Below are positions 27,674-49,774 of a stretch of 64,000 nt of DNA, one piece after another. Under the pieces are notes generated by a model. The model searched no databases and was not told where the DNA came from. It was given only the letters and a program-made list of their open reading frames with translations. This stretch comes from Bacillota bacterium (GTDB lineage Bacteria > Bacillota > Sulfobacillia > JAUYEF01), in contig JAUYEF010000221.1 in the NCBI GenBank assembly GCA_030691635.1, positions 13,929-77,928 of the forward strand. Reading direction: 5' to 3'. The position numbers were made by a program, and so were the translations under genes. Every line of letters starts with the position of its first letter. Position 1 is the stretch's first letter.

Positions 27674-27958
27674 TCAGACCTGCATTCGCATTATCTCTAG
27701 ATAGGCCTCGAGCATCTTGTTCCTCACGGAGATCGCGAGCTGCAGCCCGAGCGTGGCCTTTTCGCTTGCGATCACGGCTGTGTGGATGTCGGCGTCTTCC
27801 TGGGATAGCAGTGAGAGGACGGCCGCGTCGGCCTGGTCCTCAAGAGCCCCAGCCTTCTCAATCGCAGTCTCCAGGGCTTCTCTGAAGCCGCCCCGCGTGG
27901 CCTGCTGGGCCGCTTCAGGATACCCCATTCCCACCCGGCCCAATGGCTGTACCGGCAC
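27674..27958 (-). CDS. fliE: flagellar hook-basal body protein FliE
   Basis: 94-aa ORF ending ASEKATLGLQLAISVRNKMLEAYLEIMRMQV. Confidence 0.8.
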   Translation of the reverse strand: MPVQPLGRVGMGYPEAAQQATRGGFREALETAIEKAGALEDQADAAVLSLLSQEDADIHTAVIASEKATLGLQLAISVRNKMLEAYLEIMRMQV

Positions 27959-27969
27959 GCGTAACCCCC

Positions 27970-28374: not shown

Positions 28375-28376
28375 GT

Positions 28377-28766
28377 CTACCGCCTCCCTTCAGTTATCGC
28401 CAGGCGCAGTCTCTGGAACTTGTCGCTCAACTGGCGGGAGAGCGCGGCGAAGTACACAGAGTTTTCGGCGGCCTGGACCATCTCATACTCGATGTCCACG
28501 CTGTTGCCGTCTGTGCGGGCGCTGGAGTTCTGGCGCACAAGCCCCGGCTCGCCCTCGACCGCCCGGGGAGCCATGTGCCTTTCGTGAGTACCCGCAAGCG
28601 TGCGCCGGGAACGCATCGCATCGCACAGCGCTGTGGCGAACTCCACGTCGAGCCGTTTGTAGTTGGGCGTGTTGGCGTTCGCGACATTGTGCGAGAGCGC
28701 CCAGGACCTCAGAGAGGATGCGTCTAAGGCCTGTTCCAACAGGCTGAAGGCCGAGCCTTGCGGCAT
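28377..28766 (-). CDS. flgB: flagellar basal-body rod protein FlgB
   Basis: LSHNVANANTPNYKRLDVEF rod-protein signature. Start set at ATG 28766 (GGGAGGG 8 nt upstream). The 11 upstream codons of the track ORF overlap the terminator-like hairpin. Confidence 0.88.
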   Translation of the reverse strand: MPQGSAFSLLEQALDASSLRSWALSHNVANANTPNYKRLDVEFATALCDAMRSRRTLAGTHERHMAPRAVEGEPGLVRQNSSARTDGNSVDIEYEMVQAAENSVYFAALSRQLSDKFQRLRLAITEGRR

Positions 28767-28785
28767 CTTCGGTTCCCTCCCAGAC

Positions 28786-28819
28786 AAAAAGCCCTCCATC
28801 CGATTAAGGAAAAAGGGCT
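28786..28819 (-). terminator. terminator-like hairpin of the flgB riboswitch expression platform
   Basis: The minus-strand RNA reads AGCCCUUUUUCC-UUAAUC-GGAUGGAGGGCU. That is 12 stem positions: 11 pairs (two of them G.U) and one mismatch. It is followed by a U-run (UUUUG). It lies between the aptamer and the flgB Shine-Dalgarno. Confidence 0.55.
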
Positions 28820-28825
28820 CACAAA

Positions 28826-28925
28826 GCGTGCTGGTCCTTCGGCAACCCGGCGGTCATGGCCATCTGGCTTTAGACCCGTAGCTTTGCGTCCCCACCTTTC
28901 GGTGGGTTTGCCCTTTCGATAACCC
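28826..28925 (-). promoter_or_regulatory. c-di-GMP-I (GEMM-I) riboswitch aptamer in the flgB leader
   Basis: The minus-strand RNA reads CGAAAGGGCAAACCCACCGAAAGGUGGGGACGCAAAGCUACGGGUCUAAAGCCAGAUGGCCAUGACCGCCGGGUUGCCGAAGG. It contains the GEMM-I hallmarks: GCAAA, a GAAA-capped hairpin, GACGCAAAGC, and CGGG...GCCGGGUUGCCG. The core is 37/41 identical to the second copy at 48.19 kb, with an A-U to G-C covariation in the GAAA hairpin stem. Confidence 0.85.
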
Positions 28926-29027
28926 CGGTATGGTCTTTGGAATGCGGAGGTATGTTTCTACATCAGTCTGATAACTCCTTCTCACGGATAAAGATTTTCT
29001 TACGTTTCTGAGCCATCTAGGCGCGCC

Positions 29028-29060
29028 AACACAGAAGGCGGCGCTTTTGACGCCGCCTTC
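29028..29060 (-). terminator. intrinsic terminator candidate downstream of codY
   Basis: The minus-strand RNA reads GAAGGCGGCG-UCAAAAG-CGCCGCCUUC (10-bp stem) followed by UGUGUU, about 33 nt after the codY stop. Confidence 0.55.
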
Positions 29061-29093
29061 CGCTATTCACAACCTCTGTCTATGAGCCGGCCG

Positions 29094-29873
29094 TCACCTC
29101 AACTTCTTTAGTTCCTCGACCAGCCTGTCGTTCAGCACTTTGATGTAAGTGCCTTTCATTCCCAACGAGCGCGATTCCACAACGCCCGCGCTTTCGAACT
29201 TCCTCAGCGCATTCACGATGACCGACCTGGTGATGCCGACCCGGTCCGCGATCTTGCTCGCAACCAGGAAACCCTCATGGCCTTCGAGCTCATCGAAAAT
29301 GTGCTGCACGGCTTCCAGTTCCGAGTAGGACAGTGTGCCTATGGCCACCTGGACTGAGGCCTTCTTCCTCGCCTCTTCCTCAACCCTTTCGGTCTTCGAC
29401 CTGAGGATCTCGGTGCCCACCACGGTGGCGCCGTACTCGGCGAGCACTAGGTCTTCGTCGTCGAAGTCGCCGTGGTACTTGGCTAAGAGCAGCGTGCCCA
29501 GCCTTTCGCCGCCGCCGATGACCGGCACTATGGTCGTGACCTTTGCCTCATACCCGCAATCGAGACCTTTGTCAAAGAGACACTTCTGCTCGTCTCTCTT
29601 GATGTTGGTAGATGTCTCGTCGATTTTGAGCAGGCGGTCGTTGTAGTCGCTAGGGAACGACTCGGCCTTGAGCACCTGGTCCTGCATTACTCCGCACTCG
29701 AACTCGTCCAGGAGCGCGTGCCCGAGGATCTTGCCCCTGCGCGACAATATATAGACGTTGGCGTTGACGAGTTCGCTCAGCGCTTTGGCCATCTCCTTGA
29801 AGTTCACAGGCCGTCCCGCCGATCTCTGAAGCAATTTATTGATGCGACGTGTTTTTTCGAGTAGGCTTTCCAT
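29094..29873 (-). CDS. codY: GTP/BCAA-sensing global transcriptional regulator CodY
   Basis: 259-aa ORF starting [18 protein letters not shown], with a GAF-like N-domain and a C-terminal wHTH ([44 protein letters not shown]). Confidence 0.95.
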
Positions 29874-29927
29874 GGTCCAGTGTCTCCTTTCTCCTTCTGT
29901 TACTACTAGCGCTCCCCCACACCAAGG

Positions 29928-31328
29928 CTACAGTATATACCTGGACAAGTCGATATTGTCGATAATGTCTCCTAGCCTTGAGCGCACATATGCGCTGTCT
30001 ACCGCCACGGTTTTCTGGGCGCCTTCCGGCGCGTCGAAGGCGACCTCTTCCAGGATCTTCTCAAGCACAGTGTGGAGCCGCCGGGCGCCGATGTTCTCCG
30101 TCTGCTGGTTGACCTTGTCGGCTAACTCCGCGATGGCATCCAGGCCGTCGTCCGTGAACAATACTTCGACCCCTTCTGTTGACAGCAACGCCGTATACTG
30201 CTTTGTTAGTGAGTTCTGTGGCTCAACCAGTATCCTGCGGAAATCCTCCTTCCCCAGCGGCTCAAACTCCACCCGGATCGGAAACCGGCCCTGAAGCTCA
30301 GGTATCAGATCGGATGGTTTCGAAACATGGAACGCTCCTGCCGCTATGAACAGTATGTGGTCCGTCTTGACCGGACCGTGCTTCGTCATCACCGTGGATC
30401 CTTCGATGATCGGGAGTATATCTCGCTGGACGCCTTCGCGCGACACGTCGGGGCCGTAGCCACCCTCGCGCCCTGCGATCTTGTCGATCTCATCAATGAA
30501 TATGATGCCATTTTCTTCCGCTTGCTTGATCGCCATGCTCGACACAGCGTCTGGGTCGATCAATTTCTGAGCTTCCTCGGCAAATAGAATCTTTCTGGCT
30601 TCCGACAGAATAACCTTACGTATTTTCTTTTTCTTAGGCAATAATCCTCCCAGTGCGTCTTGGATGTTTATTCCCATTTCCTGAACGTTGGACCCGTCGA
30701 AAATCTCTAGCATGGGCACTGCTGAGTCTTCGATCTCTATCTCCACGACCGCGGCTTCCAGCTCCCCCGCCTCAAAGCGCCTCTTCGTGATCCTGCGTTC
30801 GGCCGCTGCAAGACGCATTCTCTCTTCGAACTTCTCCACATCCTCCTGGTCCTGCCGCTGCGGGCCGCCGAACAGCATCTCAAACGGGTTCCTCGTGGCG
30901 GCATCACGCTTCGGCAACGGGCTGAGGCAATCGAGCAGGCGTTCCTGCACCTGCGCCTGGGCCGCTATGCGCACCTCTTCCGTCTTCTCAGTCTTCACCA
31001 TCCGGATGGCTGTGTCGACCAGGTCTCTGACCATCGAATCCACATCTCTGCCCACGTAGCCAACCTCGGTGAACTTGGTGGCCTCGACCTTCACGAACGG
31101 GGCCGAGACCAGTTTCGCCAGCCTCCTCGCGACCTCGGTCTTCCCGACGCCGGTGGGACCTATCATCAGGATGTTCTTGGGAGTCACCTCATCCCGCATG
31201 GCGGCGTCGAGCTGCATGCGCCGGTGCCTGTTGCGCAGCGCGACGGCGACCGCCCGTTTGGCCTTGCCCTGCCCTATGATGTACTTGTCCAGCGCCTTCA
31301 CAATCTCCCGGGGTGTGAGGTCGTCCAC
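29928..31328 (-). CDS. hslU: ATP-dependent protease ATPase subunit HslU
   Basis: 466-aa ORF with [31 protein letters not shown], Walker [16 protein letters not shown], and IFIDEIDKI. Confidence 0.95.
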
Positions 31329-31871
31329 CTATGAGACCTCCTCTACGGTGACCGAGCTGTTCGTGAATATGCAGATCTGCGACGCGATCAGCAACGATTC
31401 CCTGGCTATCTCCGTGGCGTCAAGGCCTGAGTGCGCGAGCAGGGCTTTGGCTGCCGCGAGCGCGTACGGTCCGCCAGACCCGATCGCAACCACGCCATCG
31501 TCGGGCTCGATTACCTCGCCTCCGCCTGAGATCATGAAAAGCGACTGCTTGTCCATAGCGATCAGCATAGCCTCAAGCCTCCGCAGCACTCTGTCTTGCC
31601 GCCAGTCTTTGGCCAGCAACATAGAGGCGCGCTGCAGGCTTCCTCTCGACTCCTCAAGTTTCGACTCAAGCCTGTCGAACAGGGAGAAAGCGTCGGCCAC
31701 AGAGCCGGCGAAGCCCACGATCACTTTCCCCTGGTATATGCGCCTGATCTTCTTTGCCGTGCTCTTGATGATGGTATTGCTGGAAGGCACGGTCACCTGG
31801 CCGTCCCCCGCCATGGCAGCCTTGCCGTCCTTGCGCACAGCGATTATGGTCGTTCCCATCATAGCAGGCAT
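31329..31871 (-). CDS. hslV: ATP-dependent protease peptidase subunit HslV
   Basis: 180-aa ORF with N-terminal [22 protein letters not shown] (catalytic Thr). Confidence 0.95.
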
Positions 31872-32845
31872 CAGTCCTCGTCCTCCCGGTTGTCACCCGT
31901 CTTGCCCGACCTGGGGTGAGCTCTGTCATACACCTTTCTCAGGCCCTGCATGGACACGTGGGTGTAGATCTGAGTCGTCGAGATGCTCGCGTGCCCCAGC
32001 ATCTCCTGGACCGACCGCAGGTCGGCGCCTCCATCAAGCAGGTGTGTCGCAAACGAATGCCGCAGCGTGTGCGGCGTGACATGTTGCGGCTGGCCTGACG
32101 CGAGGCCGTACTTGTCCACGATCCGCCTGATGCTGCGCACGCTCAACCTCGTTCCAGAGGTGTTCAGGAAAAGCGCCTTCTCCGAGAGGCGCCGAGTCTT
32201 CGCACGTTTCTGCAAGAGCGCCAGCCGGCCGGTCCCCAGATAGTCCCCAAGTGCCGAGAGCGCCACCGAACCGACCGGGACGAACCGCTCTTTGTTCCCC
32301 TTCCCCACCATCTGCACATAACCGAGCGAGTAGTCGACGTCGGTTATGTCGAGGCTCGAAAGCTCGCTGACACGCAGGCCGCACCCGTACAGCATCTCCA
32401 GCATCGCCCTGTCGCGAAGACCCGCGGGGCTTTTGTCCGACGCCGCCTCCACGAACGAACGGGCCTGTTCCTGGTACAGAAACGCAGGCAACGTGCGTTC
32501 GATCTTCGGCGCGCTGACTTCTCTGGCGGGACTCTTCTGGATGGCATGGACCTTTTCCAGAAACTTATAGAAACTACGCACAGTGGAGTGTTTGCGGGCT
32601 ATGGAGCGCCGTGAGTAACCCTGGTCGGTGAGCGTCTTGAGGTACTGCCTCAGATCGCCGGCGTCAAGCGTCGTCAAGTCCGGGCCATGTCCGGTTTTCT
32701 GCATGATGGCCTGAAACTGCCGGAGGTCAACGGAGTAGCTGTCCAGCGTTCTGGGAGACGCGTGCTTCTCGGCAGCCAGGTATGTGAAGAACTGCTCCAG
32801 GTAGTCTGTTGTTTCAGCAGCGAAAGAGGCCACTAGCAGCGCCAC
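31871..32845 (-). CDS. xerC: tyrosine recombinase XerC (CodV-type)
   Basis: 324-aa ORF with the core-binding domain ([26 protein letters not shown]) and catalytic residues in ...[39 protein letters not shown]. Lies in conserved codV-hslVU-codY synteny. Confidence 0.9.
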
Positions 32846-32870
32846 CTATGAAATGATAAATAACGTGTAC

Positions 32871-32899
32871 ATAGTATCATATTCGCACAGTTTGTTCAA
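32871..32899 (-). promoter_or_regulatory. sigma-A-type promoter candidate for xerC-hslVU-codY
   Basis: The minus strand reads TTGAAC-17 nt-TACTAT with an extended -10 TG (TGATACTAT). It lies in the only AT-rich gap between trmFO and xerC. Confidence 0.45.
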
Positions 32900-32916
32900 G
32901 GGATCAAATGAGTCAT

Positions 32917-34239
32917 TCACAGAATTCTTTGAACGGCTTCCAGCGCCCTGACTGCCATGATCTCATGGGTCCTGCGTTTCCCGCGCACCCGCGCCTCGAC
33001 CGGCGGAAGCAGACCCCAGTTTGAGTTCATGGGTTGAAGAGGCCCCGTCCTGGGTGTGGCGATGTACCTCACCAGGGCGCCCATCATGGTCTCTGCGGGC
33101 ATGACCAGCGGCTCTTTGCCGAGGGCGATGCGCGCCGCGTTGTGCCCGGCGAGCCAGCCGGTCGCGGTGGATTCGACGTACCCTTCGACACCGCAGAGCT
33201 GTCCCGCAAACAGCACATCCGGCCGCTTCTTCGACTGCATGGAGGGATGTAGAACGCGCGGCGCGTCGAGATAGGTGTTCCGGTGCATCACTCCGTACCG
33301 GAGGAACTCGGCGTTCCGGAGGGCAGGCACGAGCCTGAAGACGCGGTCCTGCTCGCCCCATTTGAGAGACGTCTGGAAGCCGACGATGTTGTACATCCTG
33401 CCGTCGCTGTCATCCTGCCTCAGCTGCACGACCGCATAAGGTCTCTTCCCTGTCCGCGGATCGGTGAGCCCGACCGGTTTCATCGGACCGTACCTGAGCG
33501 TGTCCGTGCCTCGCCTGGCGATTTCCTCCACGGGAAGGCACCCTTCGAAGAAGCCTGTGGGTTCGAAGGCGTGCGGGACCGCCTTCTCGGCCGCCAGCAG
33601 AGATTCACGGAACACAGAATACTGGTCCTCGTCAAGCGGGCAGTTGATATAGTCTCCGCCCTCCGGACCGGTCACGTCTCCTGAGTGCCCGTACCTCGAG
33701 CCGAAGAACGCGTGTTCTTCGTCTATGGAATCCCTGGACACGATGGGGGACGCGGCGTCAAAGAAGTAGAGCGCTTGCTCTCCGGTGAAGCTGGCGATGT
33801 CCTTGGCAAGAGGGGGAGATGTAAGGGGTCCGGTGGCAACGATCACAGGGCCTCCGGTGGCACAGGGGATGCGCGGCGCCTCTTCCCGGACGACGGTCAC
33901 AAGGCTCTGGCTGGAGATCTTCTCGGTGATTTCGCGCGCGAATGCCCAGCGGTCGACTGCCAGCGCGCCGCCTGCAGGGAGATGCGACCTGTCGGCGGAC
34001 GCGAGCACCACGCTGCCCAGCACGCGCAGCTCCTCCTTGAGCAGCCCCGAAGCGTTCTTTACTGAGCTGGAGCCGAGCGAGTTGCTGCAGACGAGTTCCG
34101 CGAAGTCCCCTGAATGATGCGCGGGTGTCATCACTCCGGGGCGCATCTCATAGAGGTCTACTCTCACTCCGGCAACGCATACCTGCCAGCACGCCTCACA
34201 GCCGGCAAGTCCCGCGCCGAGTATGGTGACCTTGCTCAC
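32917..34239 (-). CDS. trmFO: methylenetetrahydrofolate--tRNA-(uracil-5-)-methyltransferase TrmFO (Gid)
   Basis: 440-aa ORF with the FAD fold VTILGAGLAGCEA, NSLGS, and GQLCGVEGYVESTATG. Confidence 0.93.
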   Translation of the reverse strand: MSKVTILGAGLAGCEACWQVCVAGVRVDLYEMRPGVMTPAHHSGDFAELVCSNSLGSSSVKNASGLLKEELRVLGSVVLASADRSHLPAGGALAVDRWAFAREITEKISSQSLVTVVREEAPRIPCATGGPVIVATGPLTSPPLAKDIASFTGEQALYFFDAASPIVSRDSIDEEHAFFGSRYGHSGDVTGPEGGDYINCPLDEDQYSVFRESLLAAEKAVPHAFEPTGFFEGCLPVEEIARRGTDTLRYGPMKPVGLTDPRTGKRPYAVVQLRQDDSDGRMYNIVGFQTSLKWGEQDRVFRLVPALRNAEFLRYGVMHRNTYLDAPRVLHPSMQSKKRPDVLFAGQLCGVEGYVESTATGWLAGHNAARIALGKEPLVMPAETMMGALVRYIATPRTGPLQPMNSNWGLLPPVEARVRGKRRTHEIMAVRALEAVQRIL

Positions 34240-34242
34240 TGG

Positions 34243-36360
34243 CTATTCCTCACCCTCAACCCTTGCCTCTCCCGGTTCGTCCCTGTAGCCGCACTCTTTG
34301 TTGGAGCACGCAATGTGCGTCCTGCCTCTGGCGCGTTTTTCGACAAGGAGAGAGCCGCATTCAGGGCACGCCTGCGCGAGCGGCCTGTCCCAAGAGATGA
34401 AGTTACAGGCAGGGTAGTTGCTGCAGCCGTAGAAGGTCCGGCCCTTCTTGGTTTTCCTGACGACAAGAGCTCCCCCGCACTGGGGGCACGCGACATCCAG
34501 CTCTTGCACGATCGGCCTGGTGTTCCGGCATTCGGGGAAACCAGGGCATGCCAGGAACTCCCCGTAGCGCCCGTGTTTCTTCACCATGAAGCGGCCGCAC
34601 TTGTCGCACTTTACTTCCGTGGGCTCATCCTTTATCTCGAAGCCCCCGATCCGTTCCTCCGCGACCTTCAAGAGTCGTGAGAAGTTCGCGTAGAAGCCCG
34701 CGATGACATCGCGCCATTCGGCCTCGCCGGCCTCGATCTTGTCGAGCTGCTGTTCCATCTGGGCCGTGAACTCCACGTCAACCACGTAGGGGAAGTACTC
34801 GCTGAGGATCTGGGTCACGACATTTCCCAGGTCGGTCGGCATGAAGCGCCGGTCCTGCTTCATCACATACCGGCGCGCCGCGAGGGTCTCCACTATGGGA
34901 GCGTATGTGCTCGGCCTTCCGATGCCCCTCTCCTCCAGAGCTTTGACCAGCATCGCCTCGGTGAACCTGGAAGGCGGCTGCGTGAAGTGCTGGCGCGGCT
35001 CGATCGCCATGACCAAAAGCTCATCGCCCTCCTCCACCGGAGGTAGAGCCCCTTCAGCATCCTCCTTGCTCTCCTCATCCACGCCTTCCTTATAGATGAC
35101 CAGGTGCCCCGGGAACTTGAGCACGGAACCTGTGGCCCGCAGCCTGGACTCTCCAGCCACTATGTCGACCGTCATCGCATTGTAGACCGCCGCCTGAATG
35201 TTGCTGGCCACAAACCGCTCCCATATCAGACGGTAGAGCCTGTGCTGGTCGGGTGTCAAGTACTGCTTCACGGACTCCGGCTCTCTGGGCACAGACGTCG
35301 GCCTGATGGCCTCATGAGCGCCCTGCTGGCCCGGGCGCTTTTCGTCCTGCCGCTGTTCCGCCGATGCATACTCGCTTCCGTACCGGCCGGTGATGAATGT
35401 CAGCGCCTCTTGCCTGGCTTCTTCGGCTATGCGGACGGAGTCCGTCCTGATGTATGTCACGAGGCCGGCCTGGCCTCCAGGCCCGAGGTCGACGCCTTCA
35501 TACAGCTGCTGGGCTACGCTCATGGTCCGCCGTACACCGAAGCCGAGACTCCGCGACGCTTCCTGCTGCAGAGTGCTGGTCGTGAACGGCGGCGCGGGCG
35601 CCCTGCGCCTCTCACGCACCTTCACGCCGGAAGCCACAAACCGCTTCTTCTCAAGGGCCGAAGCTATGTCTCTGGCCTCCTGCCCTGTAGCAACCTCGGC
35701 GTGGTCACCGTTTGTGCCCACGAACCTGGCCTCGAAAACCGTGTCTTCCTTGACCGGACGGACCCTGGCGGTGATCGTCCAGTATTCTCTCGAAACAAAA
35801 CCCTGGATCTCAGCCTCTCGATCGACAACCATCTTCAGAGCAGCGGACTGCACGCGGCCTGCGGAGAGACCTGGCCGGACTTTCTTCCAGAGCAACGGGC
35901 TGAGGTTATAGCCGACCAGCCTGTCCAGCACTCTTCTCGCCTGTTGGGAGTCCACGACGCGCTCGTCGATCGGCCGCGCCGCTTTCAGAGCTTTGGACAC
36001 AGCGTCCTTCGTGATCTCGTGGAATTCCACCCTGCACTTCGAGCGGTCGTCGATCTCGAGAGAGGCGGCGAGATGCCATGAGATCGCCTCCCCCTCACGG
36101 TCAGGGTCGGTCGCCAGCAAGACCCGGGAGGCTTTGGACTTGGCCTTTCTCAGCTCCTTCAGGATCTCCCCTTTGCCCCGGATGGTGATGTACTTGGGTT
36201 TGAAACCCTCTTCCACATCCACACCCAGCTGGCTCCGGGGCAAGTCCCGCACGTGCCCCAGGGACGCCTTGACCAGAAAGCGCCTGCCCAAGAACTTCTC
36301 TATGGTCTTTGCCTTCGCGGGTGACTCGACTATGATGAGTGGTTTCGGATTTGCCGTCAA
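34243..36360 (-). CDS. topA: DNA topoisomerase I
   Basis: 705-aa ORF with the TOPRIM start LIIVESPAKAKTIEKFLG, the active-site region LVTYIRTDS, and C-terminal Cys4 zinc ribbons (CDKCGRFMV...CPGFPEC, CPQCGGALV, CPECGSLLV). Confidence 0.95.
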   Translation of the reverse strand: MTANPKPLIIVESPAKAKTIEKFLGRRFLVKASLGHVRDLPRSQLGVDVEEGFKPKYITIRGKGEILKELRKAKSKASRVLLATDPDREGEAISWHLAASLEIDDRSKCRVEFHEITKDAVSKALKAARPIDERVVDSQQARRVLDRLVGYNLSPLLWKKVRPGLSAGRVQSAALKMVVDREAEIQGFVSREYWTITARVRPVKEDTVFEARFVGTNGDHAEVATGQEARDIASALEKKRFVASGVKVRERRRAPAPPFTTSTLQQEASRSLGFGVRRTMSVAQQLYEGVDLGPGGQAGLVTYIRTDSVRIAEEARQEALTFITGRYGSEYASAEQRQDEKRPGQQGAHEAIRPTSVPREPESVKQYLTPDQHRLYRLIWERFVASNIQAAVYNAMTVDIVAGESRLRATGSVLKFPGHLVIYKEGVDEESKEDAEGALPPVEEGDELLVMAIEPRQHFTQPPSRFTEAMLVKALEERGIGRPSTYAPIVETLAARRYVMKQDRRFMPTDLGNVVTQILSEYFPYVVDVEFTAQMEQQLDKIEAGEAEWRDVIAGFYANFSRLLKVAEERIGGFEIKDEPTEVKCDKCGRFMVKKHGRYGEFLACPGFPECRNTRPIVQELDVACPQCGGALVVRKTKKGRTFYGCSNYPACNFISWDRPLAQACPECGSLLVEKRARGRTHIACSNKECGYRDEPGEARVEGEE

Positions 36361-36420
36361 ACGCTCGCCCCCGGAATGTCAGAATCCTTCATATTATGTA
36401 TCTCAGCCAGGCGATCCAGA

Positions 36421-39073: not shown

Positions 39074-39266
39074 GACCCGCCCCCCTCTCCAGCTTGACCT
39101 AATGCTGATTATAATCTCGGCATCTTCCAGCTGTCACTTAACAGGGCGAGCCTCTGAGGCAGGTAGATTCGCTTGAGATGGTACTGGTGTCCAAAAATGT
39201 CACCAGATGCATGTTCTTGACGATTTAGGGGCATCTCAACATGGGAAGTTGCGCCAGGCGCCACTG

Positions 39267-41048: not shown

Positions 41049-41065
41049 GTGGATGTGGAATCCCA

Positions 41066-42862
41066 CTATCTCTCGCCTCCCCTCATCGCGGTCTCTTGTT
41101 CGTCGTCCTGCCCCGCGGCGGCTTTCTGGTCCTCCTGCCACTTGAACTGCAGGTCGTAGATCTCTCGGTAGAACCCGCTGCGGTCCATCAACTCATCATG
41201 GGTCCCGCGGTCCACGATCTTGCCGTCCTGGAGCACAACGATGGCGTCCGCGTTCTTCACGGTAGAGAGCCTCTGGGCGATGACGAATGTCGTGCGGCCC
41301 TTCCGCAAGTCGGCCAGAGCCTGCTGGATGAGGTGCTCCGTCTCCGTGTCCACGCTCGACATGGAATCGTCCAGGATGAGTATCCGCGGATCGGTCAACA
41401 AAGCCCTGGCGATCGCGACACGCTGCTTCTGTCCGCCGGACAGGCCCACGCCGCGCTCGCCGACGACGGTTTGGTACTGGTTTTTCAGCGTCATGATGAA
41501 ATCGTGGATCCTGGCGGCCCTGGCCGCCGACTCGACTTCCTCCAGAGCGGCGTCAGGGCGCCCGTACGCGATGTTCTCATGGATCGATGTGGAGAACAGG
41601 AAGGTCTCCTGAAGCACTACCCCAACCTGGCGTCTGAGGGCGTCAAGGTCCATGCTGCGTATATCGATGCCGTCGATGAGGATCCGGCCTCCGGTCACAT
41701 CGTAAAACCTCGGGATCAGCTGGATGATGGTGCTCTTTCCAGAGCCCGTCGCGCCCAGGAGCGCGACTGTCTGCCCCGGTTCCGCCTCCAGGTCGATGCC
41801 TTCGAGCACGTGCCGCTCGTCCTCTTGCCCGTACGAGAAGCTCACACCCTCAAAGACCACACGGCCTTTGAGCAGGCCCGGGTCTATGGCGCCGGGCGCA
41901 GCCTCGACCGCGGGCCTGGTGTCGAGGATCTCGAACACACGGTCGCCGGAGGCCACCGCACGCTGGAACAAGTTCGCCACCCAGCCGACCATCCGTAGCG
42001 GGACCACAAGCATCATGAGGTAGCTGTTGAACGCGACTAAAGACCCGACCGTGATCTCTCCCCGGATGACCTGCGACCCGCCGTACCACAGGATCATGCT
42101 GGTGCCCAGGGCCGATATGAAGTTCATCATCGGGAAGTAGTAGGCCCACATCCTCATGGCGTACAGCTGGCGCTGGAAGAAGGACCAGTTCACTTCGTGG
42201 AACTTCGCCTTCTCGGCCTCCTCCTGCGCGAAAGCCCTCACCACTCGGACCCCAGTCACGTTCTCCTGGAGGACCGCAGTCATGCGGGCGACTTCTTCCT
42301 GGATGCTCCTGTAAGCCGGGCGGACCTTGGACGAGAACCGGAAGATCACATAGGTCAAGAACGGCAGGGTCGCGAGCGACAGCAGCGTGAGCTTCCAGTC
42401 CAGCCGGAACATCAGCGCAAGTGTCAGGGTGAACGAGCTGACGGCTGAAAGCATGTTGACGATGCCGAAGCCGAGCAGCCTCCGCAAGGTTTCGACATCA
42501 CTCGTCACGCGGGACATGAGCTGGCCGGTCTGGGCGTCGTCATAGTAGCTGAACGACAGCCGCTGCAGGTGGCCGTACAGCACATTCCGCAAGTCGTATA
42601 TCACTTTCTGCGCGGTGGTCTCCATGCTGTATCTCTGTCCGAAGTGAGAGAGGGCGCGCAGCACGGAAATCGCGACTATCAGCGACACATAGGGGAGCAG
42701 CAGCTCATACTTCGACGCGAGCAGCGAGTTGTCGATCAGGAGCCGGACGACCCAGGGTCTGACCGCATTGGCCGATTCGGCCAGCAGCATTGAGGTGATG
42801 CCGACCGCGACTATGGCTTTGTATCCTTTCATGTAAGACAACAGGCGGAGAATCGTCTTCAC
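41066..42862 (-). CDS. ABC exporter, fused permease/ATPase, subunit 1 (probable heterodimer partner)
   Basis: TM domain plus NBD with GATGSGKSTI, LSGGQKQRVAIARA and ILILDDSMS. Start set at GTG 42862 (purine-rich AGGGGAAAGG ending 5 nt upstream); the track ORF extends to 42931. Confidence 0.85.
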   Translation of the reverse strand: MKTILRLLSYMKGYKAIVAVGITSMLLAESANAVRPWVVRLLIDNSLLASKYELLLPYVSLIVAISVLRALSHFGQRYSMETTAQKVIYDLRNVLYGHLQRLSFSYYDDAQTGQLMSRVTSDVETLRRLLGFGIVNMLSAVSSFTLTLALMFRLDWKLTLLSLATLPFLTYVIFRFSSKVRPAYRSIQEEVARMTAVLQENVTGVRVVRAFAQEEAEKAKFHEVNWSFFQRQLYAMRMWAYYFPMMNFISALGTSMILWYGGSQVIRGEITVGSLVAFNSYLMMLVVPLRMVGWVANLFQRAVASGDRVFEILDTRPAVEAAPGAIDPGLLKGRVVFEGVSFSYGQEDERHVLEGIDLEAEPGQTVALLGATGSGKSTIIQLIPRFYDVTGGRILIDGIDIRSMDLDALRRQVGVVLQETFLFSTSIHENIAYGRPDAALEEVESAARAARIHDFIMTLKNQYQTVVGERGVGLSGGQKQRVAIARALLTDPRILILDDSMSSVDTETEHLIQQALADLRKGRTTFVIAQRLSTVKNADAIVVLQDGKIVDRGTHDELMDRSGFYREIYDLQFKWQEDQKAAAGQDDEQETAMRGGER

Positions 42863-42973
42863 TAATGCCTTTCCCCTTGGACCGTCACGAGTGGCTGCCC
42901 AGAAAATGCTTATTCGACAGCGGGCAGTCAACTCCTTCGGGTGCCGAACTTAAGCGCCTCCAGGCTAATCTCA

Positions 42974-43018
42974 GCGCCTTCTGTTTGTGCGCCTTCTGTT
43001 TGTGCGCTTTCCGTCCTC
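42974..43018. repeat. 15-bp tandem repeat (2 perfect copies plus 1 degenerate) in the etfA / ABC-exporter intergenic region
   Basis: GCGCCTTCTGTTTGT GCGCCTTCTGTTTGT GCGCTTTCCGTCCTC, read directly. Confidence 0.8.
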
Positions 43019-43088
43019 GCGAGCTCACTCCTAGAAGAATACCAGTTTTACGGCTGTTTTCCAACACGATGCGCTCCGCGCACGCCGC

Positions 43089-43150
43089 GGTGTTCCACTG
43101 TCGAACGCCGGACCGCTCCGGCGTTCCACCATCGAACGCAAGACCGCATC
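43089..43150. repeat. two tandem copies of a 31-nt unit (24/31 identical); the junction forms a 9-bp inverted repeat
   Basis: GGTGTTCCACTGTCGAACGCCGGACCGCTCC / GGCGTTCCACCATCGAACGCAAGACCGCATC. The hairpin GAACGCCGG-ACCGCT-CCGGCGTTC lies at 43103..43126. Confidence 0.7.
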
Positions 43151-43276
43151 TGCGTCTGCCTGGAGAACGCGAAGCCGCGACTGTGTTCGTGTGTGGCACG
43201 TGCAGTCGCGGCCGCAGATCCATACTTCTTTCCCAACGGTACTAACGATCGCCTCAGATTCTCAGAGGCCGGTACA

Positions 43277-44482
43277 CTAGCCCCGGCTACGTCTGGCCCT
43301 GATCTCGGCGATGAGCGCCGGGACCACTTCGAAGAGGTCGCCGACGATCCCGTATGTCGCGAATTTGAAGATGGGCGCGTCGGCGTCCTTGTTGATCGCC
43401 ACGATGATGTCGGACGAGCTCATCCCCGCGAGGTGCTGGATGCTGCCCGATATGCCTGCGGCGATATAGACCTTGGGCCCGACGGTCTTGCCCGTCTGCC
43501 CGACCTGGATGCTGTAAGGCACCCACCCCGCGTCCACCGCCGCCCTCGATGCCGCGAGGGCGCCACCGAGTTCCCGGGCCAGATCCCTCAGCATGTCGAA
43601 GTTCTTGGGGTTAGCGAGGCCTCGGCCGCCCGAGACTATGATGTCCGCATCCTCGAGGTTCACTGTCTCGGTCTCTTCGATGAACTCGAGCAACTCCGTC
43701 CTCGAAGAGAACGGCCGGCTGACCTCGGGCCGGATGACTTCCCCGGCACGCGACGGGTCCGGTTCAAGCCGTTTCATCACCCTGGGCCGGACAGTGGCCA
43801 TCTGCGGCCGGGCTCTACGCGTCAGGATGGTGGCCATTATGTTGCCGCCGAACGCCGGGCGCGTCTGCTGGAGCAGCCCGTCCTCTGAGATCTCCAGCCC
43901 CGTGCAGTCGGCGGTGAGGCCGGTTTTCAGACGACCCGCCAGTCTGGGAGCCAGAGACCTTCCCTGGGAAGTGGCCCCGAAGAGCACGACCGAAGGCCGG
44001 TGCTCCCTGATCATCTCAGCCATCGCATGTGTGTATGGCTCGTCGCGGAAGTCCTTGAGTTCCGGGTCTTCAACAAGGTAAACCCTATCGGCGCCGGCCG
44101 TGATGAGGTCCTCCGCGAGTCCGGCCACCTCATGTCCCAACAGGACTGCCGCAACCGCGGCGGGGCCGCGGGCCAGCCGCCTCGCAGCGCCCAGAAGTTC
44201 AAAGGACACGCCGGCAGGCTTGCCCCGCCTGTGCTCGGCGTAGACCCATATGTCGTCGGACGCCTCTCCAAGGCTCGGCATCTCACGGGCGGACCCTCCG
44301 GTGCACTGTATCGACATGGCGCCCACAGGACAGGCATCGAGGCAAGCGCTGCAGAGGTTACACCGTTCGTCAACCACCACGCCCTCGTCGCCGGTGGAAA
44401 GCGCGCCAAGAGGGCAGGCACTTACGCATAAACGGCACAAGGTGCAGGCGTGGGTGTCGATGATCAGGCTGGAGGATTTCAC
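43277..44482 (-). CDS. etfA: electron transfer flavoprotein alpha subunit with an N-terminal 2x[4Fe-4S] ferredoxin domain
   Basis: 401-aa ORF. Two CxxCxxCxxxCP motifs (CTLCRLCVSACP, CNLCSACLDACP) are followed by the EtfA fold (YIAAGISGSIQHLAGM...IVAINKDADAPIF). Confidence 0.88.
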   Translation of the reverse strand: MKSSSLIIDTHACTLCRLCVSACPLGALSTGDEGVVVDERCNLCSACLDACPVGAMSIQCTGGSAREMPSLGEASDDIWVYAEHRRGKPAGVSFELLGAARRLARGPAAVAAVLLGHEVAGLAEDLITAGADRVYLVEDPELKDFRDEPYTHAMAEMIREHRPSVVLFGATSQGRSLAPRLAGRLKTGLTADCTGLEISEDGLLQQTRPAFGGNIMATILTRRARPQMATVRPRVMKRLEPDPSRAGEVIRPEVSRPFSSRTELLEFIEETETVNLEDADIIVSGGRGLANPKNFDMLRDLARELGGALAASRAAVDAGWVPYSIQVGQTGKTVGPKVYIAAGISGSIQHLAGMSSSDIIVAINKDADAPIFKFATYGIVGDLFEVVPALIAEIRARRSRG

Positions 44483-45261
44483 CTGATCACCCCCTCAAGT
44501 TTGGACAGCAGGTACTGGGCCGCTTCGCAAGCCGGGATATCCAGCACCTCTCCCCTCTTGCGGATTTCGGGCGAGAATACCCGGACGACTTCGGTGGGTG
44601 ATCCCCCGAGCCCCAGCCGGGCGGTATCGGCGCCGATGTCCTGAGGGCCCCATACGGGGATCCTCGCGCTCTTGGCCTTTATCTTGCCGCGGAGAGACGG
44701 GAGTCTCGGCTCGTTGATCTCCTTGACCACTGTGAACAGGGCCGGAAGCGGGACTCTCACCTTCTCGTATCCACCCTCGACGAGTCTCTCGACAACCGCA
44801 GACCCTCCGTCAAGCGTCATCTTCCTGACGTAGGTGGCGTGCGGTACGTCGAGTTCTTCGGCGACCCCCGGTCCCACCTGCGCGGTATCACCGTCCCAAG
44901 CCTGCTTGCCGCAGAGCACGATATCCGCGCCCAGTTTCTTTATGGCAAGGGACAGAGCGTATGCGGTGGCCAGTGTGTCGCTGCCCGCAAAAGCTCTGTC
45001 CGTCAGCAGGACCGCTTCGTCGGCCCCCACAGCCAGGCACTCCTTCAGGGCCTCTACGGCCTGAGGCGGCCCCATGCTGAGGACCGTCACCTTTCCGCCC
45101 GCTCTCTCCCTTATCCGGATTCCTTCCTCGAGCGCATAGGTATCGAACGGGTTGACTATCGAAGGCACGCCCTCACGCACGAGCGTCTTCGTCTCTGGAT
45201 CGATCTTCACGTCCGTCGTGTCCGGGACCTGTTTGACGCAAACGACTATGTTGTACGGCAA
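44479..45261 (-). CDS. etfB: electron transfer flavoprotein beta subunit
   Basis: 260-aa ORF starting MPYNIVVCVKQVPDTTDVKIDPETKTLVREGVPSIVNPFD. Confidence 0.9.
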   Translation of the reverse strand: MPYNIVVCVKQVPDTTDVKIDPETKTLVREGVPSIVNPFDTYALEEGIRIRERAGGKVTVLSMGPPQAVEALKECLAVGADEAVLLTDRAFAGSDTLATAYALSLAIKKLGADIVLCGKQAWDGDTAQVGPGVAEELDVPHATYVRKMTLDGGSAVVERLVEGGYEKVRVPLPALFTVVKEINEPRLPSLRGKIKAKSARIPVWGPQDIGADTARLGLGGSPTEVVRVFSPEIRKRGEVLDIPACEAAQYLLSKLEGVIR

Positions 45262-45266
45262 TGATG

Positions 45267-46433
45267 CTACTGCCCCCGTTTCCCTTTTCTCGCGCTTTCC
45301 TTCACCAGGGCGCCACCGATAACGTTTCTCTGTATCTGGTTGGTTCCCTCGTATATCTGGGTTATCTTGGCGTCCCGCATGAGCTTCTCGACGGGGTAGT
45401 CGCGCATGTACCCGTACCCTCCGAATACCTGCACAGCGTCGGTCGTCACCTTCATGGCCACGTCCGACGCGAACAACTTACACATGGCGGCTTCTTTCGA
45501 GTACTCCTGGGCGCCCGAATCTATGTGGCGCGTGGTCTGGTAGAGCAGCGCTTTCGCGGCCTCGGTCTGAGTCGCCATGTCGGCAAGCAAGTGCTGGACT
45601 GCCTGGAATGAGGAAATCACCTGGCCGAACTGCCGTCTGGTCCTCGCATACTCGACGCACAGGTCGATGGCGTTCTCACAGATTCCCACCGCCTGCGCGG
45701 CCACGCCCGGCCTGGCTCTGTCGAGGGTCTTCAGGGTGATGAGATAGCCGTGGCCCTCGCGCCCAAGCAGGTTTTCCTTGGGGATCCGGCAGTCCTGGAA
45801 CACGAGTTCGCGCGTGGCCGACGCCCGTATCCCCATCTTTTTTTCCTTCTTACCGAAGGTGAAGCCAGGCGTGCCTCTCTCGACGATGAAGGTGCTGGCC
45901 CCTCTGGCGCCCCGCGATCTGTCTGTGACCGCGACCACAGTGTATATGGGCGCCTCGCCACCGTTCGTTATCCACTGTTTAGTGCCATTGAGGACGTAGA
46001 AGTCGCCATCCTTCGTAGCATGAGTCCTTATCCCTGCCGCGTCACTGCCCGCGTCGGCCTCGGTAAGCGCGAAGGCACACAGGTCGCCCCTGGCGATTCT
46101 CGGCAGGTACCGCGCTTTCTGCTCCTCTGAACCGAACATCACAAGAGGTATGGAACCCAAGAAGCCGGCTGCGTACGTCACCGCCACGGCGGCACAGGCC
46201 CGCGCGAGTTCCTCCACCACTATGCAGGTCTCCGTCACGCCCATGCCCAGACCGCCGTACTGCTCCGGAACAGGAACGGCAAACAGGTCTGACTGCTTCA
46301 GAACCTCGAGTATCTCGTAAGGGAACTCTTCTTCCTCGTCAAGCCTGGCCGCTTCCGGCCGCACCTTTTCCTCCGCGATACGCCGGGCAAGATCCCGGAT
46401 CATCATCTGCTCTTCGTTGAACGCCGGTTCCAA
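45267..46433 (-). CDS. acyl-CoA dehydrogenase (butyryl-CoA dehydrogenase-like)
   Basis: 388-aa ORF with ALTEADAGSDAAG, FGQVISSFQAVQHLLADM and QVFGGYGYMRDYPVEKLMRDAKITQIYEGTNQIQ. TTG start with GGAGG 7 nt upstream. Confidence 0.9.
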   Translation of the reverse strand: MEPAFNEEQMMIRDLARRIAEEKVRPEAARLDEEEEFPYEILEVLKQSDLFAVPVPEQYGGLGMGVTETCIVVEELARACAAVAVTYAAGFLGSIPLVMFGSEEQKARYLPRIARGDLCAFALTEADAGSDAAGIRTHATKDGDFYVLNGTKQWITNGGEAPIYTVVAVTDRSRGARGASTFIVERGTPGFTFGKKEKKMGIRASATRELVFQDCRIPKENLLGREGHGYLITLKTLDRARPGVAAQAVGICENAIDLCVEYARTRRQFGQVISSFQAVQHLLADMATQTEAAKALLYQTTRHIDSGAQEYSKEAAMCKLFASDVAMKVTTDAVQVFGGYGYMRDYPVEKLMRDAKITQIYEGTNQIQRNVIGGALVKESARKGKRGQ

Positions 46434-46528
46434 GGGCGCACCTCCGTCTTAGCGGTTGGTGTTAAGAGCTATAGTTTAACACAGACTGGATGAAACAGCC
46501 AATGCATGAAGAACGGCTTGAGAGCCTA

Positions 46529-47914
46529 CTAGCAGGGAATTTTCAGACCGGCAAAGCACGCGGCGACGGTGGAGAGCTGGTCTTGCGGGACCGTCCGCAC
46601 ATCCATCACGAGCCTGCCCTCGTGCAGGCGGGCGATGACCGGCGGAGACGCCTGCCTGAGCTTTTTCGCGAGTGATGCCGCGCTTTCTCCTGGGACCTCC
46701 ACAGAGACGAGCCACGACTCGAGCCATACACCGGGGAACGACCCCCCGCCGGGACACGACTGGCCCCGCAGCACGCAGAATCTTCCCTGAGGTACCGCTT
46801 CCTTCAACATGCTCGCCAGGGATCCGGCCATATCCTCAAGTTTCTCGCCCGGCCTGGTAAGCATCTCGAGGACAGGTATGTCCTCCAGCGGCCTGCCGAA
46901 AGCGTAGATTCGAAGGGTCGCGGAGAGGGCGGCCAGCGTGGTCTTGTCCGGCCGCAGAGCCCTGGCGAGAGGGTGACGCTTCACTCGCGCGAGATACTGT
47001 GCCTTCCCGGCGATGATCCCGGCCTGTGGCCCGCCGAGCAGCTTGTCTCCGCTGAAAGTGACAATATCGCAGCCCAGGGCGATAATCTCAGGGACCAGCG
47101 GCTCATCCCCCAGGTCCATCCCCGGGAGCCCAGTCATCAGGCCGCTGCCACAGTCATAAAGCAGTGGTATGCCCTTGGACTGGGCGAGCGCCTGCAGCTC
47201 TCCGGCTGCGGCCGACTCCACAAACCCGATGATCCGGTAGTTGCTTGGGTGCACCTTCAGGATGGCAGCCGTGTCCGGGGTGATGGCCTTTTCGTAGTCG
47301 GCAAGCCGGGTCCGGTTGGTCGTGCCGACCTCTATGAGTTTTGCCCCGCTCTGCTCCATGATCTCTGGAATCCGGAACGACCCGCCGATCTCAACCAGCT
47401 CCCCCCTCGCCACGATCACCTCACGTCCCCGCGCGAGCGCGGAAAGAGAGAGAAGCACCGCTCCAGCGTTATTGTTGCAGACGATAGCGGATGCCGCTCC
47501 GGTGACTCGCGTGACCAGTTCCTCCACATGGACCTGCCTGGACCCGCGTTGGCCCGTCACAAGGTCGGTTTCAAGGTCGCAGTACAGGGACGCCCTCTCC
47601 ATCGCCTCGATCGCCTGCCTGGGCAGCGGGGCGCGGCCCAGGTTCGTGTGAATGACCACGCCTGTCGCGTTTATCACCGGTGAAGGTGTAGCGCGCGCCA
47701 TACGCTGCGCGAGCAGGGCGCACTCCTTGGCGATCGTTTCCACTGCGGGCGCCGGGCCCTCGCCTTCCTCGAGCTGGCGTCTCAGGTCCTGCAGCACTTG
47801 CCTGCAGGCGGCTATGATGGCCTCTCGCGGCACCCCTGGGATTTCCCGCAGCGCGGGCTGCGATAGGATCGAATTGACCGAGGGTATCTCACGCATTGTG
47901 GTCCCAAGCCCCAA
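46529..47914 (-). CDS. selA: L-seryl-tRNA(Sec) selenium transferase
   Basis: 461-aa ORF with INATGVVIHTNLGRAPL and the PLP-lysine block FSGDKLLGGPQAGII. TTG start with GGAGG 8 nt upstream. Confidence 0.88.
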   Translation of the reverse strand: MGLGTTMREIPSVNSILSQPALREIPGVPREAIIAACRQVLQDLRRQLEEGEGPAPAVETIAKECALLAQRMARATPSPVINATGVVIHTNLGRAPLPRQAIEAMERASLYCDLETDLVTGQRGSRQVHVEELVTRVTGAASAIVCNNNAGAVLLSLSALARGREVIVARGELVEIGGSFRIPEIMEQSGAKLIEVGTTNRTRLADYEKAITPDTAAILKVHPSNYRIIGFVESAAAGELQALAQSKGIPLLYDCGSGLMTGLPGMDLGDEPLVPEIIALGCDIVTFSGDKLLGGPQAGIIAGKAQYLARVKRHPLARALRPDKTTLAALSATLRIYAFGRPLEDIPVLEMLTRPGEKLEDMAGSLASMLKEAVPQGRFCVLRGQSCPGGGSFPGVWLESWLVSVEVPGESAASLAKKLRQASPPVIARLHEGRLVMDVRTVPQDQLSTVAACFAGLKIPC

Positions 47915-48055
47915 CCGTCCGACCTCCCACTCCGGGGTCTACCTGTCTTATCAATTATACATTATCCCCGCCGGCTCTTGCCTTCTGCACCAATAGTGTC
48001 CACACGCAGGTGGATAAGTTGCGCCCCGGGCATAGAAAGAGCCAGATTGGCGGCT

Positions 48056-48082
48056 TACATTTCGGCGATAGCCTGCCGATAA
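48056..48082 (+). promoter_or_regulatory. sigma-28 (SigD/FliA)-type promoter candidate upstream of the tad riboswitch
   Basis: TACATTTC-N11-GCCGATAA compared with the enteric sigma-28 consensus TAAAGTTT-N11-GCCGATAA. Equivalently, TACA-N15-GCCGATAA compared with the B. subtilis SigD consensus TAAA-N15-GCCGATAT. The -10 element is perfect or near-perfect, the -35 is weak, and the spacing is exact. Confidence 0.3.
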
Positions 48083-48184
48083 AGAACTTGGAGACACCAC
48101 AATCTCCATCATCATTTCCAGCAGGCGAAGCGCTCTATTCTTCTAAAGGCAGGACACAGTTTCACCAGCAAGGCTTGACCTCAA

Positions 48185-48282
48185 AACGACAAAGGCAAAC
48201 CCGCCGAAAGACGGGGACGCAAAGCCACGGGTCTGTGACGGGATCGTTTGCCGTTATGACGGCCGGGTTGCCGAAAGGTCAG
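48185..48282 (+). promoter_or_regulatory. c-di-GMP-I (GEMM-I) riboswitch aptamer in the tad-operon leader
   Basis: CGACAAAGGCAAACCCGCCGAAAGACGGGGACGCAAAGCCACGGGTCTGTGACGGGATCGTTTGCCGTTATGACGGCCGGGTTGCCGAAAGG. It has the same hallmark blocks as the flgB copy, with a variable P3 apex (ACGG...CCGT). It lies 120-150 nt upstream of the first tad ORF. Confidence 0.85.
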
Positions 48283-48431
48283 GGGAAAGATGCCCCTCAC
48301 CCGTCGCCTCCTCCGGCTGTCACCGGGAAGACCCCCTTACCAGGATCTCTCCGGCATCGCCCAGCGCAGCAGCAACGAGCGGCAACAGGAACCGGACCCA
48401 TTTCATGCCACCGGATGAGGGCGGGGATCGC

Positions 48432-48839
48432 ATGGTGCTCGACGCAATCAGACGTATGCTGCACAATCAGGACGGTCAGGCTCTCGTCGAAATCGCCCTG
48501 CTTCTTCCCATCGTCTGCCTGCTGCTGTTCGGCATAACGGAGTTCGGACGTGCCTACCAGGCCTACCTCGCCCTGGGGCATGCCGCGAGAGAGGGGGCGC
48601 GGATCGGCTCGCTCGGGGGCTTGGACAGCGAAATCGACACGACCGTGAGGAACTGCGCTTCCGGGCTGAATACGGCGAGCATCGTGGTAGCCATAACCCC
48701 ATCGGAGCCGGAACGGCTTACGGGGACGGTGGTCACAGTCCAGGTCAGCTACTCCTTCCCCATCGTTGTGCCTATCATCTCCAACATCTCGGGTACGACC
48801 ATACCTCTTTCCGTAAGTCTCAGTATGCGTGTCGAGTAA
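48432..48839 (+). CDS. TadE-like pseudopilin / pilus assembly protein
   Basis: The N-terminus ...HNQDGQALVEIALLLPIVCLLLFGITEFGRAY is the TadE-family motif (G-x4-E followed by a hydrophobic helix). Start set at ATG 48432 (GAGGG upstream); the track ORF starts at 48405. Confidence 0.75.
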   Translation: MVLDAIRRMLHNQDGQALVEIALLLPIVCLLLFGITEFGRAYQAYLALGHAAREGARIGSLGGLDSEIDTTVRNCASGLNTASIVVAITPSEPERLTGTVVTVQVSYSFPIVVPIISNISGTTIPLSVSLSMRVE

Positions 48840-48852
48840 AGGAGGAGTCTCC

Positions 48853-49764: not shown

Positions 49765-49774
49765 GAGAAGACGC

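Follow-up and report, generated by a model that had tools for sequence, protein, structure and literature searches.

How does cyclic di-guanosine monophosphate (c-di-GMP) reach two surface organelles from one chromosomal neighbourhood of an uncultured bacterium, and does it drive them in the same or in opposite directions? The question is raised by a 64-kb stretch of DNA (the window; Bacillota bacterium assembly GCA_030691635.1, contig JAUYEF010000221.1, positions 13,929 to 77,928), in which one riboswitch aptamer precedes a flagellar operon beginning with flgB and another precedes a Tad pilus operon beginning with a tadE-like gene. A sequence-only reading of this locus had proposed that two paralogous c-di-GMP aptamers, about 19 kb apart on opposite strands, switch flagella OFF and Tad pili ON when c-di-GMP is high. 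Our analysis points to two class-I switches as the probable arrangement, the flagellar one OFF by means of a terminator and the Tad one working, in either direction, through competition between aptamer and leader; the flagellar anatomy and the complementarities within the Tad leader are observed directly, and from them we infer the rest.

Rfam models run at their gathering thresholds over the whole window recognised both aptamers with E values of about 1e-16, and gave no third match anywhere in the 64 kb. The two lie 19.3 kb apart on opposite strands, facing outward (Table 1). For aptamer 2, in the Tad leader, only the best-scoring of the overlapping clan matches (RF03167) is reported, and the RF01051 score is not displayed. 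When 14 aptamers were aligned, 99% of the cells in 21 base pairs held a standard pair, a percentage biased by the fitting of the alignment to the model, and 11 of the 21 pairs had changed on both sides; none of 500 shuffles equalled this, and slid controls were 23-46% paired. The ligand-contact positions, G20, A47 and C92 (Vc2 numbering), carry canonical bases in both RNAs and are invariant in all 14 aptamers. Both also share the pocket strings AAAG-G-GC, GACGC-A-AAGC and GGGUUG-C-CG. The two RNAs are, on these sequence grounds, separate class-I (GEMM-I) c-di-GMP aptamers with canonical pockets, each predicted to regulate in cis one surface-organelle operon.

The term paralogous is apt at the level of the family and no further, as the aptamers are only 65% identical; their best Rfam models also differ. 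Each of them is much better conserved than the proteins encoded beside it: aptamer 1 keeps 90-98% identity in relatives in which that of FlgB is 64-86%, and aptamer 2 is 86-97% identical to its orthologues (TadE 81-93%) and 76% identical to the Tad aptamer of L125, a relative with 61% identity in TadE. The 65% identity, taken with this conservation in orthologues, indicates that each aptamer-operon pairing is old and did not arise by recent local duplication. Both arrangements are kept in metagenomic relatives across the same ranges of TadE and FlgB identity, and in two cases a single contig carries both leaders and the same intervening genes. That each aptamer heads one organelle operon, flgB to fliA on one side and seven tad genes on the other, is thus borne out.

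The aptamers differ outside the pocket. In aptamer 1 the GAAA tetraloop is accompanied by a receptor of canonical type (CUAAAG...CAUG), while the GAAA tetraloop of aptamer 2 faces a receptor whose 5' half, CUGUGA, is non-canonical and whose 3' half is UAUG, an architecture invariant within the close clade; the L125 Tad aptamer has the canonical CUAAAG/UAUG. Roughly one GEMM RNA in two has a GAAA tetraloop that docks into such a receptor (PMC1950547). Beside its GAAA loop aptamer 2 also has a C48204.A48211 mismatch, where intermediate relatives have C-G, U-G or U-A. The same C.A mismatch recurs in a more distant relative (L083, L084).

These differences bear on the label that Rfam gives to aptamer 2. 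RF03167, the 'GGC' model, is the top match for aptamer 2 and for three close relatives (75.6-78.4 bits in the relatives), as it would be for a true variant with altered ligand specificity. In the consensus of that model, GACGC-G-AA, a conserved G takes the place of the A47 of c-di-GMP-I. This is the discriminating position, and it gives 'GGC' its middle letter. The window has A48221 at this place, the match line is blank there, and the base is A in 14 of 14 aptamers examined, all orthologues included. Moreover, the L125 orthologue with its canonical receptor is called as RF01051 (89.9 bits), and members of the close clade, in which the receptor is CUGUGA/UAUG and the P3 loop longer, as RF03167, so that the label tracks the architecture of P3 and the tetraloop receptor and not the ligand pocket. 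An altered specificity is therefore extremely unlikely, and, judged by its pocket bases, aptamer 2 should not be classed with the GGC variants.

In the flagellar leader, an intrinsic terminator stands between aptamer 1 and flgB. Its hairpin (-17.4 kcal/mol, z -4.47) was matched by none of 200 shuffles, while no terminator-like site was found on the + strand at 48277-48431, between aptamer 2 and tadE; the platforms are thus dissimilar, with a terminator on the flagellar one only, as had been proposed. The 5' arm of the terminator, GCCCUUU, can alternatively pair with the aptamer junction J1/2, AAAGGGC (28916-28910), and the linker GCUUUGUG, in which GCUUUG is invariant in an alignment of five relatives, is complementary to CGCAAAGC in junction J2/3. 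In the minimum free energy (MFE) fold of the window and of L090 these two helices, GCCCUUU:AAAGGGC stacked on GCUUUGUG:CGCAAAGC, form an antiterminator, and the second helix is present in the free MFE fold of four of five orthologous leaders. When folding is constrained to contain the aptamer with unpaired junctions, the terminator forms with a probability of about 1 in all five leaders; in the free folds this probability is 0.32-0.97.

We propose that transcription starts past the codY terminator and that, without ligand, the linker and GCCCUUU would pair with the junction strands CGCAAAGC and AAAGGGC to make the antiterminator. As the ligand pocket is built from these two strands, ligand should release the arm of the terminator, which is OFF logic: c-di-GMP would lock both junctions in the pocket, the -17 kcal/mol hairpin and its U-run would form, and transcription would stop ahead of flgB. 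This would silence the early flagellar genes and, through fliA, the late ones too, as the overlap of fliA with the flhA stop codon places sigma-28 inside the riboswitch-controlled operon. An aptamer lies directly 3' of codY in only 3 of 80 Firmicute CodY loci (L001, L009 and L061, all of distant lineages; the search used a covariance model made from the aptamers described above), and in 3 of 3 the order is aptamer, hairpin with U-run, flgB. Flagella OFF at high c-di-GMP, in the manner of the Clostridioides difficile switch Cd1, is likely and well supported by anatomy, conservation and precedent; the ligand response and the antiterminator we infer. One of the three leaders, that of a Fermentithermobacillaceae genome (L061, 10258-10300), has after its aptamer a CGGUAG with two complements, CUACCG in the 3' strand of the aptamer and ACUACUG further downstream, and looks like a relay-type platform, unlike that of the window.

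The Tad leader comprises 155 nt of non-coding sequence between aptamer 2 and ATG 48432. As it has no terminator and contains conserved segments complementary to the 3' half of the aptamer, control would most likely fall on translation initiation or mRNA fate, with aptamer and leader pairings competing to set tadE translation initiation or the fate of the message. The free RNAalifold consensus of five orthologous leaders is indeed an alternative fold and not the aptamer: the leader segment L1 sits on the P3 3' strand, hairpin H1 caps that helix, hairpin H2 follows, and GAGCGGCA pairs with the start-codon region. All of the pairs in this last helix (205-212/261-268) are invariant, so that no covariation signal is possible. 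Part of L1, CCUCCUCC, is CCUCC-rich and resembles an anti-Shine-Dalgarno (SD) sequence, and within the start-site block GGCGGGGA-U-CGCA is a near-copy of the aptamer P2 3' strand and junction (GGCGGGGACGCA in relatives). In the window itself the two strings are GGCGGGGAUCGCA in the start block and GACGGGGACGCA at 48210-48221 (+).

No consistent switch emerged for the Tad leader, whether single sequences or the consensus were folded, and thermodynamic folding of GC-rich RNAs of 290 nt is unreliable. The mean probability that the start region is unpaired, first in the free fold and then with the aptamer enforced, was 0.32 and 0.32 in the window and 0.36 and 0.33, 0.33 and 0.33, 0.47 and 0.25, and 0.46 and 0.39 in the other four leaders. 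The modelled folds lean OFF. The direction of the Tad switch is not readable from sequence, and we regard ON and OFF as about evenly balanced. Three other explanations of the leader were discarded. A 43-codon leader reading frame with a good ribosome-binding site (RBS) begins at ATG 48290, an ATG that is absent in all relatives, and indels break the frame; a decayed flp gene finds no tblastn similarity; and a Rho-loading (rut) site in the C-rich stretch 48293-48365 (49% C, 21% G) finds no conserved counterpart in L081 or in L083.

Several observations weigh against the arrangement we favour. In the flgB leader the antiterminator complementarity is suggestive and not significant (60 of 500 shuffles were as good), and the terminator persists in the free ensemble of L091 and L096 (P 0.94-0.97); given such weak complementarity statistics and the modest equilibrium contrast, the flagellar OFF call leans on kinetics and analogy. 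Translational control of tadE is itself unproven, as the predicted accessibility of its start site hardly shifts with the state of the aptamer, and the C.A mismatch and non-canonical receptor of aptamer 2 could weaken binding. A scan for the sigma-70 consensus found no promoter in the flgB or the Tad leader, and the host organism is known from metagenomes only.

How the two leaders act together depends on the Tad direction. A reciprocal toggle, in which high c-di-GMP terminates flgB transcription and turns the tad operon ON, is a credible arrangement that we would place somewhat short of even. Such control is what the general role of c-di-GMP in promoting adhesion would lead one to expect; pilA1 of C. 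difficile is ON, and class-I ON switches exist, for example Bc2 (PMC6366702). A possible ON route, suggested by modelling, is that in the apo state the start block GGCGGGGAUCGC pairs with the P2 5' strand (GC...CCCGCC), and that ligand restores P2 and releases the RBS. The block, which copies the P2 3' strand and junction, is invariant in all relatives. In the two sequences whose native P2 has the C.A mismatch, its pairing with CCCGCC (48200-48205) is either the unconstrained MFE fold (L083) or 5.3 kcal/mol above it (the window). In three relatives with a perfect P2, however, the same pairing lies 9-12 kcal/mol above the MFE; the strand repeat, matched without gaps, is not significant (81 of 200 shuffles were as good); and enforcing the aptamer raised start-site accessibility in none of the five leaders. 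A stronger form of this idea, in which the Tad leader is a long-range translational ON switch whose start block GGCGGGGAUCGC mimics an aptamer strand and competes from about 210 nt away for the P2 5' strand, with c-di-GMP favouring the aptamer and with the C.A mismatch and altered receptor tuning its threshold away from that of the flagellar aptamer to give a two-threshold motile/sessile toggle, seems to us unlikely. Of the reciprocal control first proposed, then, the flagellar half is likely (terminator P of about 1 in five of five leaders, sigma-28 in the operon), whereas the Tad ON half comes from expectation and is not supported: besides the accessibilities, the L125 Tad leader, the one Tad leader of a relative in which a terminator could be read, points the other way. 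Its order is aptamer, terminator, flp, tadE, and in a fold of the prefix that ends before the terminator 3' arm, the P3 loop and 3' strand of the aptamer pair with the terminator 5' arm (28 of 500 shuffles were as good); since this antiterminator consumes P3, the logic is of the OFF type.

The L125 leader would fit control in the same direction, with both leaders OFF and flagella and Tad pili shut down together as a surface-exploration module, an outcome that is possible though we hold it with some doubt. By the route that the folding models suggest, and which we treat as similarly doubtful, ligand would close the aptamer and free L1 (CCUCCUCC), which would then mask the SD and the start region. 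In agreement with this, L1 occupies the 3' strand of the aptamer when the consensus is folded freely and becomes a partner of the start region once the aptamer is enforced (from 0 to 0.34, 0.10 and 0.19 in L086, L081 and L083), the unpaired probability of the SD falls in four of four leaders, and all seven functional class-I switches of C. difficile are OFF (PMC6366702). Yet the effects are small, and nil in the window (0.32 against 0.32, with L1 pairing going from 0.00 to 0.04), the L1:SD complementarity read from the alignment is strong only in the subclade of the window, L086 and L123, the folding on which the route rests is of RNAs too long and GC-rich to be reliable, and c-di-GMP is generally expected to promote adhesins. 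That aptamer 2 is instead decaying or inactive, leaving the tad operon constitutive or otherwise regulated, is improbable. The mismatch by the tetraloop and the non-canonical receptor half would suit decay, and of the 16 c-di-GMP riboswitches in C. difficile five do not function (PMC6366702), but the ligand-contact bases are intact, pairing at the mismatched position is maintained in relatives, and the aptamer keeps its high identity while the surrounding leader diverges and gains indels.

The arrangement is best judged beside known systems. The sequence-only reading had set against C. difficile the apparent use of one aptamer class for both outputs and a pilus of Tad type, and as a claim of novelty this goes too far: flgB and cpaA/pulF were already among the gene families recurrently found downstream of GEMM in 2007, together with variable and possibly novel tetraloop receptors (PMC1950547, Table 2), and in Vibrio cholerae two class-I switches give opposite outputs without using termination (PMC6366702). 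Earlier examples therefore exist of the concept, of each gene association and of a single aptamer class serving opposite outputs. The closest parallel to the flagellar leader is Cd1 (Cdi-1-3) of C. difficile, which is experimentally OFF on an flgB operon that contains sigD (PMC6366702). Both have a class-I aptamer in the 5' untranslated region of an early operon of about 20 kb that begins with flgB and includes sigma-28, with a terminator after the aptamer and OFF expected; the window differs in its host, a high-GC uncultured Bacillota, and in the position of the leader directly after codY. Unlike C. difficile, no flagellar invertible switch was seen in the window. The Tad leader resembles C. 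difficile Cdi-2-4, the class-II riboswitch that turns pilA1 ON (PMC6366702): both head operons for type IV filaments, in Firmicutes whose flgB is riboswitch-controlled. The Tad leader differs in being class I and without a terminator, in serving a Tad (type IVc) and not a type IVa pilus, and in having a tadE-like pseudopilin gene and not a major pilin gene first.

The GEMM RNAs of 2007 share with the window their gene associations and their GAAA tetraloops with variable receptors, but their terminators overlap the aptamer 3' stem, which implies ON, whereas the flgB terminator here is separate and of the OFF type (PMC1950547). Vc1 and Vc2 of V. cholerae likewise show one aptamer class used twice in a genome with different platforms and provide a termination-free precedent for the Tad leader; the genes regulated there are gbpA and tfoY, and the opposite outputs are shown there and not in the window (PMC6366702). 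The direction of a c-di-GMP riboswitch cannot be extrapolated between contexts (PMC6366702). Two features set the window apart: its flgB switch lies next to codY, in a high-GC lineage of Bacillota about which little is known, and a class-I leader that has no terminator heads a Tad operon without its own pilin gene. If the two directions were opposite, class-I aptamers alone would suffice for a motile/sessile toggle in Firmicutes, here with a Tad pilus; if both were OFF, swimming and surface exploration by Tad pili would be shut down at the same time by c-di-GMP. In both cases known principles would be extended and no new one established.

The earlier remark that the flagellar operon contains no PilZ gene also agrees with our scan: about 65 open reading frames (ORFs) of the window were compared with Pfam and NCBIfam profiles, and none has a PilZ, GGDEF or EAL domain. 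In the window, conserved RNA-level input of c-di-GMP is predicted for flagellum and Tad pilus alike, from leaders that lie 19 kb from each other and with no protein effector gene nearby. The flagellar genes run in the order flgB, flgC, fliE, fliF, fliG, fliH, fliI, fliJ, fliK, flgD, flgE, flbD, motA, motB, fliL, fliM, fliN, fliP, fliQ, fliR, flhB, flhA and fliA. No flhF, flhG or che gene occurs between flhA and rpsB, unlike in the fla/che operon of Bacillus subtilis; the FapA-family gene and the 114-codon ORF found there may be the tail of the flagellar operon. As the start of flgB, an upstream in-frame ATG at 28799 was rejected, since it lies inside the terminator and homologues (64-99% identity) are 129 amino acids (aa) long.

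Table 1. Features of the two leaders and their operons, in window coordinates
Feature	Position	Strand	Description
ORF, 114 aa	7629-7973	-	no family match; between fliA and rpsB
FapA-family gene	about 7986-9380 (or to 9491)	-	between fliA and rpsB
fliA/sigD (sigma-28), 260 aa	9388..10170	-	TIGR02479 FliA_WhiG, 264.8 bits (cutoff 189.6); overlaps flhA stop codon
Flagellar early operon, flgB to flhA then fliA	9388..28766	-	about 19-21 kb; Pfam and NCBIfam matches
flgB, 129 aa	28377..28766	-	Pfam Flg_bb_rod; ATG 28766; RBS GGGAGGG 28781-28775
Intrinsic terminator	28784..28820	-	hairpin 28820-28789 and U-run UUUUUGU 28790-28784; kept in all relatives
Linker GCUUUGUG	28820..28827	-	complementary to aptamer core CGCAAAGC (28888-28881); candidate anti-aptamer strand
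Aptamer 1, c-di-GMP-I (RF01051)	28838..28922	-	flagellar leader; 88.7 bits (gathering 35), E 3e-16
Aptamer 1 ligand-site equivalents	G20 = 28912, A47 = 28885, C92 = 28842	-	canonical
codY terminator-like hairpin	29034..29060	-	10-bp GC-rich stem, UGUGUU tail; read from sequence; conserved in relatives; separates codY from flgB leader
Nearly invariant block	48100..48147	+	about 45 nt, about 40 nt upstream of aptamer 2; flanks diverge; no sigma-70 consensus match
Aptamer 2, best model c-di-GMP-I-GGC (RF03167)	48185..48276	+	Tad leader; 76.3 bits (gathering 59), E 2.5e-16
Aptamer 2 ligand-site equivalents	G20 = 48194, A47 = 48221, C92 = 48271	+	canonical
Hairpin H1, GGUCAGGGG...CCCCUCACC	48277..48301	+	directly 3' of aptamer; RNAalifold pairs 103-111/119-127, kept through one-sided changes
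Leader segment L1, CGUCGCCUCCUCCGGCUG	48302..48319	+	3' part (48312-48319) pairs with aptamer P3 3' strand CGGCCGGG (48260-48267); RNAalifold pairs 86-93/138-145
Variable hairpin H2	48323..48354	+	compensatory changes at columns 152/178, 153/177, 155/175
Invariant element GAGCGGCAAC	48377..48386	+	complementary to aptamer 3' strand GUUGCCG (48267-48273) and to start-codon region UGGUGCUC
Start-site block GGCGGGGAUCGCAUGGUGCUC	48420..48440	+	SD and ATG 48432; invariant in all relatives
tadE-like, 135 aa in close homologues	48432-48839	+	ATG 48432; TadE domain
tadG-like	about 48853-49764	+	Tad domain
cpaB	49775-50497	+	RcpC and SAF domains
tadZ/cpaE	50555-51805	+	AAA_31/ParA with weak receiver domain
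tadA/cpaF	51823-53286	+	T2SSE, 235 bits; TIGR03819, 346 bits, below curated cutoff 373
tadB	53297-54277	+	T2SSF
tadC	54281-55213	+	T2SSF

The seven-gene tad operon (48432..55213, +) encodes the TadA/CpaF ATPase, the platform proteins TadB and TadC, TadZ/CpaE, CpaB and the TadE/G-like pseudopilins of a Tad/Flp (type IVc) locus. No flp gene was found in the window, either by a motif scan or by tblastn with the L125 Flp (noise only, best E 0.18), and no prepilin peptidase (TadV/CpaA) appeared as a Peptidase_A24 match among the scanned ORFs; both genes must lie outside the window in this genome. A gene for a 59-aa Flp stands directly upstream of tadE in L125 (905-1084) and in L128 (3754-3933), a relative with 48% identity in TadE that has flp and tadE without an aptamer, suggesting that the clade of the window lost flp from that position or moved it. 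A metagenome scan with TadE gave distant N-terminal matches only and no useful leaders.

With regard to the host lineage, CodY of the window is at most 72% identical to its best match among 185,579 species representatives compared, in a metagenome-assembled genome (MAG) of Symbiobacterium, and FlgB is 99% identical to a protein of an unclassified 'Bacillota bacterium' MAG. Upstream of aptamer 1, codY, hslU, hslV, xerC, trmFO, topA and dprA form a classic Firmicute neighbourhood. A search for the CodY box gave no match in either leader at up to three mismatches. Upstream of aptamer 1 all relatives have a conserved block, AGAAGGAGTTATCAGAC...TAGAA (28945-28995, -), which fits neither the sigma-70 nor the CodY-box consensus. 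The block upstream of aptamer 2, at 48100-48147, is a putative promoter or operator. Finally, third-position GC is unusually low (0.54-0.60, the level elsewhere being about 0.78) in two ORFs of 366 and 86 aa at 59635-61004 (-); neither matches a Pfam family, and they may be of foreign origin or not genes at all.

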